Source of the DNA: Candidatus Krumholzibacteriia bacterium | GTDB taxonomy: Bacteria > Krumholzibacteriota > Krumholzibacteriia > LZORAL124-64-63 | DNA: 7,973 nt | Assembly (NCBI GenBank): GCA_036351155.1 | Contig: JAZBOO010000075.1 | Span: 1-7,973 of the forward strand | Direction of reading: 5' to 3' | Part shown: positions 1 to 7,973 of the stretch, in pieces | Layout of the letters: each line of letters starts with the position of its first letter | How positions within the stretch are numbered: position 1 is the first letter of the stretch | Made by a program: the position numbers and the translations under genes | Notes under the pieces: model-generated | What the model was told of the DNA's origin: nothing | The model's database searches: none | Seen by the model: only the letters and a program-made list of their open reading frames with translations

Positions 1-1454
1 CGCGTGAAGCCGGTGACCCGCAGGTTCCAGGGACCGGTCAGGTACTCCGCCCCCAGATCCCAGGTCCAGCCCCGCTCGGCGTCCAGGTGGGCGTTGCCCT
101 GGTTGGCCGGATCTTCGTAATACAGTTCCGTGAAGGTGGGCAGCCGGTACACGGAGCCCGAGCTGGTCCGCAGCACAAGCCCCCTGGCCACCTCGGCAGA
201 AACCGCGGCCGACCCGGACACCCGGGAGGCAAAACCTGTCCTCCGGTCCACCCGGCTCCCCAGCTGCCAGCGCACCCGGCCGTGGTGCCCGTCAATCTCG
301 GCCGCCACCGAGGCCCGGCGACGCAGATGGTTACCCAGGGCCTCGCCCCAGACGCCGCCGCGCAGACCACGGCTTTCGATATCCTCGTAGCCGCCTTCCA
401 GACTGACCGACAGAGCATACCCCGAGCCGAGCCTGACCAGACCGCGCAGTTCGGCGCCCGCCTTCTGGGACTGGTGGTCGTTGGTGTAGGACTCAGGGTT
501 ATCGCGGAACAGGATAAACTCGTCCCGGTGCCGCCGGAAAAACACCCGCGGCTCCAGGGTCAGACGATCGGAAATGGTCCGATTGTAGCGCGCCGCGGCA
601 AAGAAGGTCCGGGTCTTCTCGAAGCTGTCGAAGGGCGCGTAGAAATCCTGGGCCCCGAACTGGCGATCAGCATAGCCGGCGAAGACATCGGCCTCGCCCC
701 GGTCGAACCTGTGGGTCAACCGGGCCGTGGTGCTGTAGGTGTCGGCATCGCTCTGGTTATCTTGTTCAACAGAATGACCATCGGTACGAAAACGCTCCCC
801 CGAGATTCTCACTCCGGTTTGCTGCCCCAGCGCCAGTCCCGCATTACCCCAGGTGCCCCAGGTCCCATTCTCACCGCCGTAGGCCGCGACTTCCGATCCG
901 GTCACCAGCGGATGCCCCGCCGTATCGGGCAAGGCCGGCCGGCGGCTGACCACGTTGATGGTGCCTCCGAAGGCCCCCGAGCCATAGAGGGTCGATCCGT
1001 GCCCCGGCAAAACTTCCAGGCGCTGAATGTCCTGTCGGCCCAGGGGCAAATCCATGAGGTGATGGCCCGTCTGGGGATCGCCCAGGTCAAAACCATCGAG
1101 CAGAACCTGTACCTGCTCGAAGCTGGAACCGCGGATGCTCACATCGCTCTGAACACCGTACTGCTGCCGCTGCCCCACCACCACACCGGGAACCGTCTGC
1201 AGCACCTCGGCCGCCGAACGGCCAGGCAGGCGGGCCAGGTCGGCCTCGTCCACCACTCCAACCGTGCGCACGATTCCCGGCAAAGCCGCCGTGACCCGGG
1301 TCCCCACGATTTCCACGATCTCCACCAGCCACAGGGTATCCCCCTCGACCACCACGAAATCGGCGGTGGCCGGGGGCTCCTGGGCCTGGGCCGGGGTGGT
1401 TCCGCCCAACAAGGCCAGGCAAGCCACGACCAGGGCTATTCTATTGTTCCACAT
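1..1454 (-). CDS. TonB-dependent outer-membrane receptor (plug + beta-barrel), 3'-truncated by the window edge
   Basis: Manual translation of the minus strand from the ATG at 1454 (GAGGA RBS upstream) is open to the window edge, about 484 codons. It has a signal peptide (MWNNRIALVVACLALLGGTTPAQA) and a TonB-box-like EIVEIVGTR. Plug motifs are LQTVPGV, SIRGSSFEQVQVLLDG and IQRLEVLPGHGSTLYGSGAFGGTINVVS. A barrel motif YRLPTFTELYYEDPANQGNAHLDAERGWTWDLG is present. It is absent from the ORF track because there is no stop in the window. Confidence 0.93.
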   Translation of the reverse strand, partial: MWNNRIALVVACLALLGGTTPAQAQEPPATADFVVVEGDTLWLVEIVEIVGTRVTAALPGIVRTVGVVDEADLARLPGRSAAEVLQTVPGVVVGQRQQYGVQSDVSIRGSSFEQVQVLLDGFDLGDPQTGHHLMDLPLGRQDIQRLEVLPGHGSTLYGSGAFGGTINVVSRRPALPDTAGHPLVTGSEVAAYGGENGTWGTWGNAGLALGQQTGVRISGERFRTDGHSVEQDNQSDADTYSTTARLTHRFDRGEADVFAGYADRQFGAQDFYAPFDSFEKTRTFFAAARYNRTISDRLTLEPRVFFRRHRDEFILFRDNPESYTNDHQSQKAGAELRGLVRLGSGYALSVSLEGGYEDIESRGLRGGVWGEALGNHLRRRASVAAEIDGHHGRVRWQLGSRVDRRTGFASRVSGSAAVSAEVARGLVLRTSSGSVYRLPTFTELYYEDPANQGNAHLDAERGWTWDLGAEYLTGPWNLRVTGFT

Positions 1455-1483
1455 GGGCGAATCCTCGATCAATCAGCCTCGAA

Positions 1484-2953
1484 TTACGCGGTCTTGGTTT
1501 TGGGCTTGGGCTTGGCGTTCCACAGACGCAGGGCCAGGGCAAACCCGATGGCCGCCACCGGAACCATCGCCAGAGGCCAGGCTTTCCAGTTGGCCGGGTC
1601 GGTGGCCGGACCGGTGATGTGGCCGGCGGCATCCAGCTGCACCTTGGGCAGGACGTTGCGGTAAGTGAGCGCCATGACCCCGGTGCCAAGATAGACAAAG
1701 CCATCGATGATACCCACCGCGATGCCTGCGTTCTTGCTGCCGCCGAAGTCCATGCTGGCCGTGCCGGAGAGCATGCCGTGCACACCGATGACAGCCATGG
1801 ACATGAAGACCACCAGCCAGCCCACGATGGGGCTCGTGTACAGGAAAATCAGTCCGATGGAGCCCACCAGCATGACACCGTACAAGAAACCGGCCACCGG
1901 GCCGCGCCGGGACTGGAACAGGTGGTCGCTGATGGTGCCGGCGAACACCCCACCGGTGATGCCGGCGATGCACAGCAGAAGACCCCAGTTGTCATAAACG
2001 AAGGCCGACTTGAGGCCCAGGATAGCGTCGGTCTGCTTGGCGAACGAGGTGTACTGCTGCATGATCGCCTGGCGCAGGAACCCGCTGCAGAACTCGACGC
2101 CGGCGATGGTCAGGATGATGGGGTTGGTGAGCATTTTCTTGAAAACCACCACGGCGCCCAGGCGAGGGCCCTCATCGCCGCTGGTGGCGTCACCCGTGTT
2201 GAAGTCCTCGAGCCCGGCCTCGGATGGGTGATTGCGCACCATGAAGAAATCCAGCAACCAGAAGATACTCAGCAGCAAGGCGGGCATGAAGAAAACCCAG
2301 ACCAGGCCCATGCCATCGAGAATCATGTGGCCCAGATCGAAGGCGAAATAGACCCCCAGGGAAATGAGGATACCAAAAATGGCCCCGAACACCCCGCGCT
2401 CACGCACATGGAACCAGGGCGCATTGACTTTGACGATGGCCACGGCCCCGAAGCTCTGAAAGTACATGTTGGCCGCGTAGAGCACCGAAAAAACGGCAAT
2501 GAAGTGAGCCGCCAGAAACTCGGAAAACGGACCATGGTGGAGCAGGGAAAGGCTGGACAGTCCCATCAGAACATTCATCACCAGCGCCCCCAGGGTGCCG
2601 GTGAGCATGGAGAAGCGCCCCCCCATACGGTCAGTCAGGGGTCCATTGATCAGAAAAGAGATGCCGTAGATGATCGTCCCCACCATGAAGATGGTGTTGA
2701 AGCCGGCGTTGCCCATCAGCGGGTCTCCACCGGGACCGGCCATCTCCTCGAAAGCGTACTGGCTGACCTTGAGGTTGTAGCGGCCCATGTACAGGAAGGC
2801 GTAGGTGAGGCCCAGAGGCAGCCAGTTCATGACGCGGCGTCGCAGGTAAGCCTTGCTGTGCCCCACGTCCACCGAAGGCAACCGATAGAAGACCAGCGCG
2901 ACCACGAGCAGTAAAAAAATCAGGGGCCAGAATTCCTTGAGCCAAAGAGGCAT
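1484..2953 (-). CDS. MFS transporter, organophosphate:phosphate antiporter (OPA; GlpT/UhpC-like) family
   Basis: About 12-13 hydrophobic segments, MFS motif A (GPLTDRMGGR; repeat GTISDHLFQSRRGP) and WFHVRERG. Arg residues in YMGRYNL and GFLRQA match the two substrate-binding arginines of GlpT. The start is placed at ATG 2953 (MPLWLKEFW, GGGAGAG RBS upstream) rather than 3049. Confidence 0.88.
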   Translation of the reverse strand: MPLWLKEFWPLIFLLLVVALVFYRLPSVDVGHSKAYLRRRVMNWLPLGLTYAFLYMGRYNLKVSQYAFEEMAGPGGDPLMGNAGFNTIFMVGTIIYGISFLINGPLTDRMGGRFSMLTGTLGALVMNVLMGLSSLSLLHHGPFSEFLAAHFIAVFSVLYAANMYFQSFGAVAIVKVNAPWFHVRERGVFGAIFGILISLGVYFAFDLGHMILDGMGLVWVFFMPALLLSIFWLLDFFMVRNHPSEAGLEDFNTGDATSGDEGPRLGAVVVFKKMLTNPIILTIAGVEFCSGFLRQAIMQQYTSFAKQTDAILGLKSAFVYDNWGLLLCIAGITGGVFAGTISDHLFQSRRGPVAGFLYGVMLVGSIGLIFLYTSPIVGWLVVFMSMAVIGVHGMLSGTASMDFGGSKNAGIAVGIIDGFVYLGTGVMALTYRNVLPKVQLDAAGHITGPATDPANWKAWPLAMVPVAAIGFALALRLWNAKPKPKTKTA

Positions 2954-3068
2954 GAGCACTCTCCCAATAGCGACCACGCAGGTCGGTTCAGCTGTGACGG
3001 ATCCGGACTGGGAAACATACGCCCTGACGGGACCTGTTTCCAGCCGCATTAGTTTTATTTACCTGGCC

Positions 3069-5408
3069 TTAACCCTGCCGGCGCACCACCACCAGGGTGA
3101 TATCATCGCTCTGGGCCACGCCCTGGGTATGCTGGCTCACCGCGTCCAGGATGGCCTCCTTGATGCCCACGGCGGGCAGGTGGCTGCTGCGGCGCACCAC
3201 CTCGATCAGCGGTTCCTCACCGAACATGGCCTCGGGATCGTCTTCCTCGGCCGAGGGGCCCACCGCCTCGGTGATGCCGTCGGTGTACATGACGATGATC
3301 TCGCCCGGCTCCAGGGTGATGGTCTCCTGCTTGTAAACCACTCCGCTGACCATTCCCAGCAAGAGACCGCCGGTTTTGAGCAGTTCGATGCTGCCATCGT
3401 TGCGCAGAACCAGGGGCGGATTGTGCCCCGCGTTGGTGCTGGTGAAGGTGCCGCTGGTCAGGTCCAGCAGGCCGTAGAAGAAGGTGGCGAACATGTGGGG
3501 ATCGGTGCTGCCCACGATCAGGTTGTTCACGCGGGTGACGATCTCCGCCACGCTGCTGGGGTGAATGACCTGGCCCTGCAGGCTGGCCTGCAGGTTGCTC
3601 ATCAACAGAGCCGCCGGCATACCCTTGCCCGACACATCGCCGATGGCCACGCCGAGGTGGCGATCGTCCTGCATCAGGAAGTCGAAGTAGTCGCCGCCGA
3701 TTTCCCGGCTGGGAATGCTGGCCCCGGTGACCTCGAAACCGGCCAGTTCGGGTTCTCCGGCAGGCAGTAAGCGCTCCTGAATTCCCCTGGCCGTTTCCAG
3801 CTCACGGGTCAGGCGCTCGTTGGCCAGAGCATCCTCGCGTCCCTGGCGGATGGATTTGGTCATCTCGTTGAAGCTATGGGCCAGGTCGCCCAGCTCATCA
3901 TCGTTGGGAATATCGATGACCGTGTCCAGATCACCTGCGGTCAGGGCCTTGGTGCCCCGGTCCAGCTTGTGGACGGCGGTCACAAACCCCTCGGTGATGC
4001 GGAGCCCGAACATGAAGGCGAAGATTTCCAGGATCAGGAACAGAGTGGCCACCACACCCAGACTGACCACCACCGCCACGTTGATGTTGTTTTCGCCCTC
4101 CAAGAACTCCTTGCGCAGATCCTGCCACCGCACCCGCAGGTTGATGAACACGGTGGTTTCCGAGACCCGGTCGCCACGCAAGTTGATGACCTCGAACATG
4201 CTGCTCCCGAAGAAGCGGAACTTGCCCCAGAAGGCCGGATCGTCACTGACGTCACGGTAGCTGATCTTCCGGCCGGGATAGCCGCGGCGCAGGGTTTCGG
4301 ACTCCCCCCTTGAATCGGAGGTCGGGTCCTCACCACTCCCGCCAAACGAGGTGATGTCCAGTCCCGCCGTCAGCACCTCGGACAGCTGCTCCAGCGGGGC
4401 CTGCCCAAGCAGCCAGCCCCGCGTGCGCGCACGGTCGGTGCCCGCATCTTGCCACTGCATCAGCCAGATTTCCTGGTCCACCAGAAACCACCCCGTGGTG
4501 TCGATGGGACTTTCCCGGAGCGTATCCTGTCGATTGACCCGGATCTCCGACGACAGAGCCTTGTCCAGCTGTCCGGCCCACCAGGGCGCCTCCAGGGTGG
4601 TGCTCAGGGGGGAAATGGGATTCCGGTCCAGGGGAATGACCCCCGCCGACCAGACGAAGGTGGTGTCGAAGGGCGCGCCGCTCAGATCGGCTCCGCGATG
4701 GGCCTCCTGGCGCCATCCTTCGAGGATGTTGCTGGCGCGCTGGGCGCGCGCGCCTCCCAGACCGGTGTAGAAAATCATCACGCCCATGACCAGCACCAGG
4801 ACCAGCGGCACGAAACCGATCAAGATGGCGCTGACCGCCAGCTTGGGCCTCAGCCGCAGGAAATGCAGCCGCATGTGAATGGCCAGGTGGAACAGCGACC
4901 AGAACCAGAACCCGACCAGCGACCAGAGCGACCATCCCCCCACGTGACGCAATACCGCCAGGAAGCCCGACTCAGGGGCTTCCAGGGCCCAGAAACGATG
5001 GCAGAAGACCACCAGCACCAGTGCCAGCAGGCCCAGGCCAAAGCCCACCGCGCGCCGGCGGTCCGAGATGTGCCGCCAAGACTGGTACTGGCGCATGGTC
5101 AGAAAAATATGGGACAGGGCGATGCCGAACCCCATCCCCACCGAGCCCTGGGTGACCACCAGGAGGAAGGTGCCCGCCAGGACCACCAGCCACAGCCAGC
5201 GGCCCCAGGTGTCGCTGAGCAGGAAGCGCAGAGCGGCCAGCCAGCTCAGGCCCAGCAGAACCGAAACGGTGACCTGGGTGAAGGCCGGGGTCAGCAGCTG
5301 CCGATCCAGATGCAGGAAGGTGACCAGGGCGGCCACCAGGATGAACAGCGCGTTGAGAATCACACAACGCCACAGGCGGCGTGCCAGGGGGGCGGGGGCA
5401 TTTTTCAA
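3069..5408 (-). CDS. Membrane-bound PP2C/SpoIIE (RsbU-like) serine phosphatase with N-terminal multi-TM region, extracytoplasmic domain and HAMP domain
   Basis: 779-aa ORF with PP2C motifs IGGDYFD, GDVSGKG, NAGHNPP, YTDGITE and DDIT. The HAMP signature is GDLDTVIDIPNDDELGDLAHSFNEMT. There are several N-terminal TM helices. The TTG start overlaps the upstream TGA stop, with AAGGAG upstream. Confidence 0.92.
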   Translation of the reverse strand: MKNAPAPLARRLWRCVILNALFILVAALVTFLHLDRQLLTPAFTQVTVSVLLGLSWLAALRFLLSDTWGRWLWLVVLAGTFLLVVTQGSVGMGFGIALSHIFLTMRQYQSWRHISDRRRAVGFGLGLLALVLVVFCHRFWALEAPESGFLAVLRHVGGWSLWSLVGFWFWSLFHLAIHMRLHFLRLRPKLAVSAILIGFVPLVLVLVMGVMIFYTGLGGARAQRASNILEGWRQEAHRGADLSGAPFDTTFVWSAGVIPLDRNPISPLSTTLEAPWWAGQLDKALSSEIRVNRQDTLRESPIDTTGWFLVDQEIWLMQWQDAGTDRARTRGWLLGQAPLEQLSEVLTAGLDITSFGGSGEDPTSDSRGESETLRRGYPGRKISYRDVSDDPAFWGKFRFFGSSMFEVINLRGDRVSETTVFINLRVRWQDLRKEFLEGENNINVAVVVSLGVVATLFLILEIFAFMFGLRITEGFVTAVHKLDRGTKALTAGDLDTVIDIPNDDELGDLAHSFNEMTKSIRQGREDALANERLTRELETARGIQERLLPAGEPELAGFEVTGASIPSREIGGDYFDFLMQDDRHLGVAIGDVSGKGMPAALLMSNLQASLQGQVIHPSSVAEIVTRVNNLIVGSTDPHMFATFFYGLLDLTSGTFTSTNAGHNPPLVLRNDGSIELLKTGGLLLGMVSGVVYKQETITLEPGEIIVMYTDGITEAVGPSAEEDDPEAMFGEEPLIEVVRRSSHLPAVGIKEAILDAVSQHTQGVAQSDDITLVVVRRQG

Positions 5409-6091
5409 CGGATTCCGTGCTCCTTCTTGTAGACGGCCCAGTTGTCCTTGAGGTGGCAGAAGGCGGCAAAATCCGGGGCAATCAGGAAGGGATTGTGTCG
5501 CCGCTCGTGCCCGATGGTGCTGCTGGGCATGGCGCCCTCGCCGCCGTAGTAGTCGTGACCGGGAAAGACGCCGGTGGCATCGGGAAGTTGCAGAATTTTC
5601 TGTAGCGAAGCGTGCTCCTGCTCCGCCGAGGAGCCGGCGAAATAGCTCCCGGTGCCTCCCACCTTCCCACAGAACAGCAGATCGCCGGTGACCAGCCGGC
5701 CATCAAAAAGATAGCAGAAATGGCCCGGCGAGTGGCCGGGTGTGGCCAGGGCCTTGACGGGAGTACGGCCCAGAAGGATTTCCTGCCCATCCTGGACCGC
5801 CTGGGCTCCGGGCACCTGGTCTTCGGCGCCGGCCCAGAGCTGGGCGCCGGTCAGCTTTTGCAAGGACTCGACACCCCCGATGTGGTCGCTGTGCCCATGG
5901 GTGATCAGGATGTGCTTGATGTCCATCCCCTGATCCATGGCAATCTCGGCCAGCTTTTCCGGGGCGAAGCCCGGGTCAACGGCCGCCGCTTCGCCGGAAT
6001 GCAAATCGCCCAGCAGGTAGCAGAAATTGCGATCGCCCCCCAGATGAATCTGGAAAAAGCGCGTTTCGCCCTGGCTGTGGTCGTTGATCAT
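5405..6091 (-). CDS. Metallo-beta-lactamase-fold hydrolase (glyoxalase II / hydroxyacylglutathione hydrolase-like)
   Basis: HxHxDH motif THGHSDH, plus TPGHSPGH, TGDLLF, PGHDY and STIGHERRHNPF. An AGAGAGGA RBS lies upstream of ATG 6091. Confidence 0.92.
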   Translation of the reverse strand: MINDHSQGETRFFQIHLGGDRNFCYLLGDLHSGEAAAVDPGFAPEKLAEIAMDQGMDIKHILITHGHSDHIGGVESLQKLTGAQLWAGAEDQVPGAQAVQDGQEILLGRTPVKALATPGHSPGHFCYLFDGRLVTGDLLFCGKVGGTGSYFAGSSAEQEHASLQKILQLPDATGVFPGHDYYGGEGAMPSSTIGHERRHNPFLIAPDFAAFCHLKDNWAVYKKEHGIR

Positions 6092-6246
6092 CGATGGATC
6101 CTCTCTACGTATGGTAAGGAAGCGTTCATGATAACCCTTTTTCCCGCGTTGCGTCTCCCCCTATTGCGGACTCCCATTTATTTCCTACCATTCTTATAGG
6201 ACTAAATGCGTCTTGTTTCCCTTCGCCCAAAATAAAGGACATGGTC
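6092..6246. promoter_or_regulatory. AT-rich divergent promoter region
   Basis: 155-bp intergenic region between divergent starts. A candidate + strand sigma70-like promoter is TTGCGG(6164-69)-N16-TACCAT(6186-91). Candidate minus-strand -10 boxes are TATCAT and TACCAT. Exact boxes are uncertain. Confidence 0.45.
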
Positions 6247-7083
6247 ATGAGAAAACCTCTTGTGCGCTTTTTCGCCCTTTCCATCGTCATGCTGATGATG
6301 GTCACCGGCCTGGCCCAGGCCGACCCCGGAGACGTGGGTACGCCTGCGGCCCCGTTCTCGCTCACCGCTCTTGGTGGAGGCACGGTCAGCCTGAGTGACT
6401 ACTCCGGCCAGGTGGTCGTGCTGTTCATCGTGGGCTATGGTTGAGGTTCCTGTATTGCTGCGGCCCCCGGTGCGGAGGCCATCGCGACTGCTCGAGCCGA
6501 TCAACCCCTGACCATGCTCGCCATCGACGCCTGGGGTGGAAATGAATCCCAGGGCCAGATCTTCATCAACAGCTCCGGCTGGGGCTTGCCCTTGTTGCTG
6601 GGCGGCCTGCAAGCGGGCTTCCTGGCCGACTACGACACCGGCTATGACTACTTCATCGTGGTCGACCACGAGGGCATCATCAGCTGGCGGGGCAGCCCCC
6701 AGACCCCCAACCACACCAACATGGCCAACGCGGTGGACAATGCCCTGGCCGCCATCAGCACCAGTGCGTCGCCCGAGGCCCCCCGCGCCCGGCACCAGCT
6801 CCTGGCCGGATATCCCAACCCCTTCAACCCCATGACCCGCATTCCCTACGAACTGGCCGAAAGCCAGGGCGGGGATGTGCCGGTGAAGCTGGAGATCCTG
6901 GACCTGCGCGGACGCGTGGTCAAGACCCTGGTGAACACCCGGCAGGCGACGGGCCAGCGTCACGAGGTGACCTGGGACGGCACCAGCAACGCCGGACGCA
7001 AGCTGCCCAGCGGCAGTTACATCAGCCAGCTGACCGTCGGTGGAGATGCGCCTCAGGCGCGGATTCTGACACTGGTAAAATAA
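6247..7083 (+). CDS. Probable exported selenoprotein (278 aa, Sec66): signal peptide + thioredoxin-fold redoxin/TlpA-like domain with UxxC + C-terminal FlgD-Ig/T9SS-type sorting-like domain
   Basis: ORFs 6241..6444 and 6514..7083 share a frame and are separated only by TGA 6442-6444. Read-through gives PAAPFSLTALGGGTVSLSDYSGQVVVLFIVGYG-U-GSC-IAAAP, placing the TGA at the first Cys of a redoxin CxxC. The protein also has FIVVDHEGII and a C-terminal YPNPFNP...WDGT...LPSGSY domain. The AAAGGA RBS spacing favours ATG 6247. Signal peptide is 6247-6321 (AQA|D). Confidence 0.88.
6445..6498 (+). promoter_or_regulatory. Putative bacterial SECIS element (Sec insertion hairpin) directly 3' of the UGA
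   Basis: The apical stem is GGCC(6462-65)/GGCC(6477-80), then a C.A mismatch, then CC/GG closing a GGUGC loop whose G lies about 25 nt from the UGA. The basal helix is GGUUC(6445-49)/GAGCC(6494-98), with imperfect pairing in between. Folded by eye. Confidence 0.7.
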
Positions 7084-7115
7084 TTGGTGAAATAAACTCG
7101 CCCATATTTCATCAA

Positions 7116-7151
7116 CAGAAACGGCGGCTCCTGAGAGCCGCCGTTTTGCTG
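7116..7151. terminator. Rho-independent terminator, likely bidirectional, between convergent genes
   Basis: Perfect 12-bp inverted repeat AAACGGCGGCTC (7119-7130) / GAGCCGCCGTTT (7135-7146) with a CTGA loop and short T/A tails on both sides. Confidence 0.85.
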
Positions 7152-7168
7152 TCTCATGATAACCTGGG

Positions 7169-7973
7169 TCAACGATAAAGCGCCTTCACCCCATCAAGGG
7201 TGATGGCCTCGGTGGCCACCGGGCCGTCGGCCAGGGGCAGGAAGTTCACGAAGAAGTTGACGATGTAGGGAGGATCGTTTCCATCGAGGATGAACTCTGA
7301 GATTTCATCCACGTCCTGGGTGCCCCAGTAGTTGTTGGTCATGTCCAGAAATACTTGTTCTTCCCCCCAAGGCCAATAATCCAGGACACTCCGTACGTAC
7401 AGAGCTTCTCCATTCCGAATGAAATGGTTGTTGTTGAAGGAGGATTGTCCCACCCCGGGTCCTCCCACAAAGACACAACTTCTCACTGGCTCGAAAGTGT
7501 TGTTGTAGGCGACAAGATTGTAATCGTAGATCAGATAGATTTCGTCGGAATCGGAGAACCGCAGCACGCTGTCATGAACCACCACATGCGAATCACTCAC
7601 CGTGATGGCATCATTAAAATACTCGACATGACAATTGTCCACTTCAATGGACGCGCCTGATGACACGTAGAAGCCTGAGCCGCCCTGATACGTCGGCGGG
7701 GCAGAGAGATGACAGTTGCGGATCACGATGCCGGAAGTGTCCGAACCCCAAAACCCCATGCCATATTGGCTGTTTTCAAACTGGCAGTCTTCTATCACCA
7801 TTCCTGAAGTCGGTCCACTGGTTCTAATGCAGTATTCGGGCAAGTCTTTAAAATTGCAGTTTCGGATCAAGCTTCCACTGGAATTCCAACTTTTGATGCC
7901 AACAGTCCAGTTATTTGCCAAGCTGCTGTCGGTAAAACTACAATCAGTCACCTCCAGATAGTCGAACCCGGAG
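7169..7973 (-). CDS. Right-handed parallel beta-helix (pectin-lyase-like) repeat protein, 5'-truncated by the window edge, probably secreted
   Basis: The frame stays open upstream of 7951 to the edge (…SGFDYLEVTDCSF). Repeats such as LIRNCNF, VIEDCQFENS, VIRNCHL, EVDNCHV, AYNNTF and FNNNHF are typical of beta-helices. It contains DMTNNYWGT and ends PVATEAITLDGVKALYR. Confidence 0.8.
   Translation of the reverse strand, partial: SGFDYLEVTDCSFTDSSLANNWTVGIKSWNSSGSLIRNCNFKDLPEYCIRTSGPTSGMVIEDCQFENSQYGMGFWGSDTSGIVIRNCHLSAPPTYQGGSGFYVSSGASIEVDNCHVEYFNDAITVSDSHVVVHDSVLRFSDSDEIYLIYDYNLVAYNNTFEPVRSCVFVGGPGVGQSSFNNNHFIRNGEALYVRSVLDYWPWGEEQVFLDMTNNYWGTQDVDEISEFILDGNDPPYIVNFFVNFLPLADGPVATEAITLDGVKALYR

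Follow-up and report, generated by a model that had tools for sequence, protein, structure and literature searches.

A probable selenoprotein gene of Krumholzibacteriota, called as two open reading frames, for a thioredoxin-like protein with export features

We analysed a 7,973-nt stretch of DNA (hereafter the window) from Candidatus Krumholzibacteriia bacterium, of the phylum Krumholzibacteriota (assembly GCA_036351155.1, contig JAZBOO010000075.1, positions 1 to 7,973, forward strand). We consider it highly probable that positions 6247-7083 are one gene, coding for an exported thioredoxin-like redox selenoprotein, that has been miscalled as two genes. Our confidence is slightly greater still that the UGA at 6442-6444, within this gene, is read as selenocysteine (Sec). 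A preliminary description, made from the letters of the DNA alone, had proposed that this UGA is decoded as Sec66, and the proposal gains support from the comparison with relatives (TGA in this column in 66 of 75 aligned rows, with Cys forms among the others), from the selenocysteine machinery of the genome and from a hairpin downstream of the codon.

The reading frame, on the + strand, runs from ATG 6247 to the TAA at 7081-7083 and comprises 278 sense codons with one internal stop, the TGA at 6442-6444. Translated through this codon, the active site reads ...FIVGYG-U66-G-S-C69-IAAAPGAEA..., and C69 is encoded by the sole Cys codon of the frame (TGT). Thus, the preliminary description was right that a single TGA interrupts an otherwise continuous frame and that it lies three residues before the only Cys. 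Calling of open reading frames (ORFs) with translation table 11 splits the gene into ORFs at 6241-6444 (67 aa) and 6514-7083 (189 aa). A Shine-Dalgarno-like AAAGGA lies 7 nt upstream of ATG 6247, and sites of the GGAGG or AAAGG type are found upstream of the equivalent N-terminal start in orthologues. In agreement with the earlier remark that ATG 6514 has no ribosome-binding site, no Shine-Dalgarno-like run could be read upstream of it. The coordinates of the features are collected in Table 1.

The TGA does not stem from faulty assembly. Contigs of two public runs, X1 and X2, span positions 6442-6444, and both keep the TGA, with no listed difference from the window at these positions, which answers the question of a sequencing error raised at the outset; one of the two runs may have supplied the window itself. 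Between 6200 and 6840, the X1 strain and the window differ at 16 positions. None of these falls within 6404-6593, the stretch with the UGA and the hairpin.

Among relatives, the position of the TGA is conserved. TGA occupied the same column at 7 of 7 loci from related genomes, six of them 46-55% identical and one 30% identical, and at 13 of 16 metagenome loci, with Cys in the remaining three, which were the most distant. Across 151 genomes of the phylum, a search gave 52 best matches (at least 83 bits); 51 of these, in 46 genomes, had one TGA, and the single match without it (G110) reads GYACAPC. When all profile hits from the window and 70 loci were aligned with hmmalign (75 rows), TGA was present in the column in 66 rows and Cys in eight, and one fragment lacked the column. 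Since some loci from separate collections were the same DNA, they were de-duplicated, leaving 61 distinct Sec forms. Position 66 in relatives was either TGA or Cys and never Trp or another residue, as decoding as Sec had led the preliminary description to expect. The two residues between U and C were variable in orthologues (UGGC, UTRC, UPRC, UVGC, UPFC, the GS of the window and others), and coding conservation extended on both sides of the TGA down to ~30% identity. Within the phylum, the lineage is almost fixed for Sec.

In a collection of 5.8 billion proteins, the 35 closest proteins were all 153-208 aa long and contained only the part after the TGA, so the suspected mis-splitting of the gene in databases is real. 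The family is miscalled everywhere in databases, as a truncated C-terminal piece only; because of this truncation, an exported redox family of the phylum is held there without its active site. A profile search of 1.84 billion representative proteins returned many full-length Cys proteins of ~260 aa. The same layout of signal peptide, redoxin domain, and sorting tail was found in six of the 12 that were fetched, and three of the eight that were looked up had names: two were called 'peroxiredoxin' and one, P0272, named by NCBI for a Bacteroidales metagenome-assembled genome, 'redoxin domain-containing protein'. These forms are called whole and named because Cys replaces Sec. Alignment of two of them, P0139 and P0272, with the entire window protein gave 29-31% identity and placed Cys opposite U66. 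Together with P0129, they share its three-part architecture and have G-Y-G/D-C-P-x-C opposite G-Y-G-U-G-S-C; they differ in having Cys rather than Sec, and are themselves uncharacterised. The best-scoring Cys relatives, P0122, P0123, and P0125, have two to three tandem redoxin domains in which G-Y-x-C-P-x-C is repeated, and no sorting tail was visible in the sequences returned.

The source organism uses selenocysteine. Its genome (4.19 Mb in 405 contigs, 97.6% complete) contains selA (377 bits), a SelB winged-helix domain within a 684-aa open frame, selD (362 bits), and a tRNA-SeC(tca) that is 98 nt in length and has a long extra arm; all of the components that the preliminary description had named as worth looking for, selA, selB, selD, and tRNA-Sec, were therefore present. 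The selD gene (G000:C334:1256-2173, - strand, locus L004) has an in-frame TGA of its own, so that SelD is itself a selenoprotein in this genome. It reads ...SAG-U-AAKLSP..., at what is presumably the position of the SelD active-site Cys/Sec.

Downstream of the UGA, the transcript can form a hairpin like a bacterial selenocysteine insertion sequence (bSECIS). The core stem (6462-6469 paired with 6473-6480), which lies 21-39 nt after the UGA and has one C.A mismatch (6466/6476), reads G-G-C-C.C-C-G / G-U-G loop / C-G-G.G-G-C-C over 6462-6480. An upper stem of 7 bp carries the apical G-U-G loop (6470-6472), which starts 25 nt past the UGA, and in the lower stem 6455-6458 are paired with 6484-6487. 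The hairpin agrees with the bSECIS constraints given in PMC13188914: a loop of 3-9 nt that has G as its first or second nucleotide and lies 16-37 nt past the UGA, and 4-16 bp in the upper stem.

The RNAalifold consensus contained the same hairpin in 20 of 20 close orthologues. Five codons that form it (A-P-G-x-E-A; +7, +8, +9, +11, and +12 relative to the UGA) showed almost no synonymous change, being GCC in 17 of 17, CCC in 17 of 17, GGT in 18 of 18, GAG in 18 of 18, and GCC in 16 of 17 sequences, respectively; outside the hairpin, the codons for conserved Gly, Ala, and Pro residues were freely variable. Only eight of 113 conserved columns had zero entropy, and four of the eight were among the five hairpin columns (hypergeometric p 5e-5, with p-values of this kind only indicative because the sequences are related). 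Mean codon entropy was 0.06 bits in the hairpin columns vs 1.17 bits. In a more diverse set of 52 sequences, 80.4% of the cells could pair, a level reached by none of 500 shuffles, and the covariation score was 0.182 vs 0.110, with the former value reached by one shuffle in 500. The 32-nt segment after the UGA averaged -11.0 kcal/mol compared to -7.3 kcal/mol for other segments of the same loci, and it fell in the more stable half in 50 of the 52 loci.

Several results weigh against a functional hairpin or are neutral. The hairpin in the window is no stabler than shuffles of its GC-rich sequence (z -1.07 in one test; z -0.61 in another, where 55 of 200 shuffles were as stable). The covariation is also modest, with one compensatory pair in the 20 close orthologues and a score that 33 of 500 shuffles reached. 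A shift of the 3' partners by +1 in the wider set gave a nearly equal covariation score (0.180), as subfamilies place the hairpin in shifted registers. In addition, when the whole window was scanned against Rfam (E up to 10), no family of the SECIS type emerged and nothing came near a gathering score. Selection on the hairpin is thus suggested by comparative evidence and not by thermodynamic stability.

Three other accounts of the TGA were weighed. If UGA 6442 were a true stop, a 65-residue peptide, the 189-residue product of the ORF starting at ATG 6514, or both would be made. This is the default result of table 11, and the 35 closest database proteins are annotated in this way. However, a Pfam domain spans the stop, conservation is seen on both of its sides down to ~30% identity, the internal ATG has no ribosome-binding site, the downstream piece would have an export tail with no signal peptide, and the Cys forms are continuous proteins; we regard a true stop as very improbable. 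We give even less weight to the idea that the UGA is read as a standard amino acid, through either a reassigned code (TGA as Trp or Gly) or near-cognate suppression. Computation alone cannot separate Sec insertion from efficient read-through at one site, but the genome has the full Sec machinery, the site is matched in relatives only by Cys, and the UGA is followed by a positioned hairpin with frozen synonymous sites. The reassigned code was rejected because TGA is a normal stop in this genome and the commonest one, ending 1412 of 2341 open frames of at least 400 codons as well as both neighbouring genes. Least credible of all is that the TGA arose by an error of sequencing or assembly, or by a recent mutation that inactivated the gene and left a pseudogene; nothing beyond the stop itself speaks for this. 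It is already refuted by the comparisons, since 66 aligned relatives share the TGA at this column and, across 151 genomes, 51 of the 52 best matches contain it, and by the X1 and X2 contigs described above.

Translation through the UGA restores a complete domain. Pfam matches to PF00578 (AhpC-TSA; residues 30-146, 32.9 bits vs a cut-off of 26) and PF08534 (Redoxin; residues 30-160, 30.3 bits vs a cut-off of 26.6) both run across the TGA, and neither ORF alone is therefore a whole domain; each half had been described beforehand as an incomplete thioredoxin fold. When the redoxin-domain profile was compared with the Protein Data Bank, it matched 3kcm, ResA, and others, and the Sec column stood opposite the first Cys of CxxC in 3kcm. 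In an AlphaFold model (mean pLDDT 72, lower at residues 60-80), U66 lies between a strand at 56-62 and a helix at 67-72, which agrees with the earlier placement of the TGA at the end of a thioredoxin-fold strand. The model puts UxxC where a CxxC-type dithiol would be in a thioredoxin fold, past strand 1 and at the N-terminal end of helix 1. In a Foldseek search, the model matched structures of ResA, of TlpA-like proteins, and of pneumococcal Etrx, reaching a TM-score of 0.88 on the target. The redoxin domain used alone as a protein-search query returned only the window's own truncated cluster and was uninformative.

The closest known proteins by profile and fold are thiol-disulfide oxidoreductases of the TlpA/ResA/Etrx type (solved structures 1st9, 2h1b, 3kcm, 4hqz, and 2yp6; TM-scores 0.75-0.88 on the target). 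These share with the window protein an active site that follows strand 1 and lies where helix 1 begins, and they are located outside the cytoplasm, as is predicted for the window protein, but they have CxxC and are membrane-anchored or lipoproteins, whereas the window protein has UxxC and a tail of the type IX secretion system (T9SS) type. One feature near the active site may count against the assignment. In the HMMER profile alignment with 3kcm, its G-V-P-E is opposite N-Y-D-Y of the window protein, so that Tyr-Asp takes the place of Val-Pro, which we take to be the cis-Pro loop of the thioredoxin fold facing the active site. The Cys forms have T-Y-D-R/K at this place. Residues 129-135 (6631-6651), Y-D-T-G-Y-D-Y, replace the 3kcm loop that holds Val-Pro; most orthologues have a second conserved Cys here, in Y-N-C-G/N-Y-D-Y, and Thr is found there in the window and the L008 group.

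Two other assignments were tried and rejected. The peroxidatic motif of peroxiredoxins is given as PxxxTxxC/U in PMC13188914; this motif is absent, with I-V-G-Y-G before U66, no Thr at -3, and no Pro at -7, and the window protein was therefore not classed as a peroxiredoxin proper. An hmmscan of 18950 NCBIfam models at E up to 0.1 gave no match to a selenoprotein-specific family, and the families for Omp28-related proteins (NF045500), SaoT (NF040730), and VPGUxxT proteins (NF041383) were discarded. The protein most probably catalyses thiol-disulfide (selenenylsulfide) exchange, acting on extracytoplasmic substrates.

The type of selenoprotein is already known, and the gene reveals no new mechanism. 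Peroxiredoxin (Prx)-like and TlpA-like selenoproteins with UxxC in a thioredoxin fold are listed among predicted prokaryotic families (Table 1 in PMC13188914; Table 2 in PMC2398784). In common with these families, the window protein has a thioredoxin fold, with PF00578/PF08534 scores above cut-off, UxxC with Sec at the first Cys of CxxC, many Cys homologues, and a function that is predicted. Compared with the published descriptions, the window protein differs in its probable signal peptide and T9SS-type tail, and the Krumholzibacteriota lineage differs in that nearly all of its members in the phylum are of the Sec form (51 of 52) and databases hold only fragments of it.

The Global Ocean Sampling (GOS) study of Zhang & Gladyshev (2008) lists Prx-like 1, 2, and 3 (Table 2, PMC2398784), of which 'Prx-like 2' is presented as a very distant Prx homologue with weak similarity to pfam04592 (PMC2398784). 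In supplementary file 3 of that study, reads under the 'Prx-like 2' header have a signal-peptide-like start, ...G-x-F-T-U-x-x-C..., and, in at least 16 places, a ...YPNPFNP... tail (PMC2398784), and they resemble the window protein in their start, their UxxC, and their NPFNP-type tail. These reads mean that an exported UxxC redoxin with an NPFNP-type tail has been in published data since 2008; the passages of PMC2398784 consulted do not describe the tail as a secretion signal. The window protein differs from 'Prx-like 2' in matching PF00578/PF08534 directly, and the surroundings of the active site differ when compared by eye, unaligned. Another GOS family, 'UGSC-containing', has a conserved U-G-S-C and no Pfam domain according to Table 2 of PMC2398784. 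We rejected it as the family of the window protein, which has a clear PF00578 match and orthologues that vary between U and C; because these two residues vary freely, the 'UGSC' of the window is a coincidence.

Features at both ends of the protein suggest that it is exported; neither these features nor the prior cataloguing of UxxC redoxins appeared in the preliminary description. Residues 1-25 look like a signal peptide by eye, with a basic start, a hydrophobic core, and A-Q-A before D26. At the C-terminus, PF13860 (FlgD_ig) scored 39.5 bits vs a cut-off of 27, TIGR04183 (T9SS type A sorting domain) scored 23.4 bits, barely above its cut-off of 23, and the PorU model was matched as well, in its C-terminal part. 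An NPFNP-type tail was present in 46 of the 61 distinct Sec forms. The genome itself has PorU (499 bits vs a cut-off of 420), with a PorV-like gene adjoining it, and SprA, in a 2163-aa frame (483 bits summed). Among 51 scored matches to the PorU model in the genome, 44 were C-terminal domains of this type, one of them that of this gene and the others at the ends of other frames. From these features, we consider it moderately likely that the protein crosses the outer membrane through the T9SS and is displayed or released at the cell surface. The fuller proposal, a selenoenzyme carried through the outer membrane by the T9SS and working at the cell surface or outside, is put forward tentatively.

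Other observations weigh against T9SS export. The second sorting-domain model, PF18962 (Por_Secre_tail), scored 18.6 bits, under its cut-off of 27, and the PorV-like gene scored 94.7 bits, under its cut-off of 250. GldM was not found in the genome by a search that was silent in all controls too. TlpA, ResA, and Etrx are reduced through CcdA/DsbD, and an enzyme at the surface would be without the CcdA/DsbD-type reductant that TlpA-like proteins normally use. No redox partner (CcdA, DsbD, or Msr) was seen among the nearby genes.

These observations can be read to mean that the protein is a real selenoprotein that stays in the periplasm, where a relay of the CcdA/DsbD type reduces it, with the Ig-like domain being a structural or binding module rather than a T9SS signal. 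The sub-threshold PF18962 score beside a passing generic FlgD_ig model, the low PorV score, and the missing GldM are all consistent with this, as is the need of TlpA-like enzymes for a membrane-bound reductant. Furthermore, the Ig-like tail is missing from ~11 of the 61 distinct Sec forms, which have instead a short W-S-x-V-K-x-L-Y-R end, so the redoxin domain can work without the tail. On the other side, TIGR04183 does pass its cut-off, if only just; PorU exceeds its cut-off and has the PorV-like neighbour, and SprA is present; the matches to the PorU model include 44 C-terminal domains of the same kind; and the tail is shared by full-length Cys forms, including one with a Bacteroidales name. 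We consider a periplasmic location less likely than export through the T9SS, but a serious alternative.

The short-tailed sub-branch (L102, L103, L104, L105, L135-L139, and L142) consists of Sec forms and the single Cys form G110. Its members end ~120-128 residues after the active site, in ...P-x-P-V-x(3-5)-W-S-x-V-K-x-L-Y-R, which may be a different sorting or anchoring signal. In two genomes the short-tailed Sec form occurs as a tandem pair (L103, G042:C27:47511-48571; L137, G102:C230:353-1464), each copy with its own TGA and hairpin.

The genes around the selenoprotein gene code for a major facilitator superfamily (MFS) transporter, a HAMP-SpoIIE phosphatase, a GloB-like hydrolase of the metallo-beta-lactamase (MBL) fold, and a beta-helix protein. 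The gene for the HAMP-SpoIIE (PP2C-type) phosphatase and then that for the 228-aa MBL-fold protein occupy 3069-6091 on the - strand. This pair of neighbours recurs in L007, L011, and L093 and is not seen in L008 and L009. The best match of the MBL gene is hydroxyacylglutathione hydrolase GloB, at 122 bits, which is under the cut-off of 200.8. The gene is transcribed away from the selenoprotein gene, with 155 bp between the two, and might be connected with thiol or persulfide chemistry. Downstream, a convergent gene for a beta-helix/NosD-like protein (7169-7972, - strand) also occurs in L007 (4924-6822) and L095 (2164-3300), where it ends in a FlgD_ig sorting domain. Because of these tails, the window appears to have two putative T9SS cargo genes arranged tail to tail, sharing the hairpin at 7119-7146. 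This hairpin is stable (-26 kcal/mol, z -5.74, with none of 200 shuffles as stable), and it was not listed by a simple terminator scan. One metatranscriptome run, X21, placed nothing on the window, which is neutral either way.

Table 1. Features of the selenoprotein gene and its immediate surroundings (positions in the window)
Feature	Position	Strand	Basis
Shine-Dalgarno-like AAAGGA	6234..6239	+	Sequence reading; GGAGG/AAAGG at orthologue starts
One coding sequence, 278 codons + TAA, with UGA very probably read as Sec	6247..7083	+	Conservation in relatives before and after the TGA
Probable Sec-pathway signal peptide, residues 1-25	6247..6321	+	Translation; comparable orthologue N-termini
TlpA/ResA-like thioredoxin-fold (AhpC-TSA/Redoxin) domain, residues 30-160	6334..6726	+	Pfam, PDB profile, Foldseek
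UGA, very probably Sec66, first residue of U-G-S-C	6442..6444	+	Column conservation; aligns to first Cys of CxxC
TGT, Cys69, putative resolving partner in UxxC, invariant in the family	6451..6453	+	Translation, alignments
bSECIS-like hairpin	6455..6487	+	Folds, consensus structure, pair counts, frozen synonymous sites
FlgD-Ig-like / putative T9SS type A sorting domain, residues 186-278	6802..7080	+	PF13860, TIGR04183, PF18962 (below cut-off), PorU model
GC-rich hairpin between convergent genes, then UUUU on the + strand	7119..7146		Probable terminator

Searches of the literature, covering titles and the starts of abstracts, gave no paper that links selenoproteins with type IX secretion, only incidental co-mentions. 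They likewise gave no paper on selenocysteine in Krumholzibacteriota and, for extracellular Sec oxidoreductases, nothing relevant beyond one review.

Taken with T9SS export, the features above can be placed in a working scheme. SelB and Sec-tRNA(Sec) would read UGA 6442 as Sec, guided by the downstream hairpin in the mRNA, as the comparisons suggest. The preprotein would be exported by the Sec pathway, with the redoxin domain folding outside the cytoplasm. To judge from the fold and the Cys homologues, U66 would attack a disulfide or another oxidised sulfur species, and C69 would resolve the resulting selenenylsulfide. The C-terminal domain may then direct passage through SprA and be removed by PorU.

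Judged by sequence, the window gene belongs to a wider family of T9SS-tailed TlpA-like redoxins, of which it is the Krumholzibacteriota lineage. Its recognition corrects an annotation that is wrong throughout public data and raises the number of selenoproteins by at least one per genome in a sediment phylum about which little is known, with the Sec form present in 46 of the 151 genomes sampled. The Sec and Cys forms are also a natural pair of identical architecture that can be used to ask why extracytoplasmic redox enzymes keep Sec. If the enzyme does work at the cell surface or outside, Sec might be favoured since a selenol stays reactive and resists irreversible over-oxidation beyond the reach of the cellular reductant relay, and the enzyme might handle environmental thiols, polysulfides, or peroxides in sulfidic sediments.

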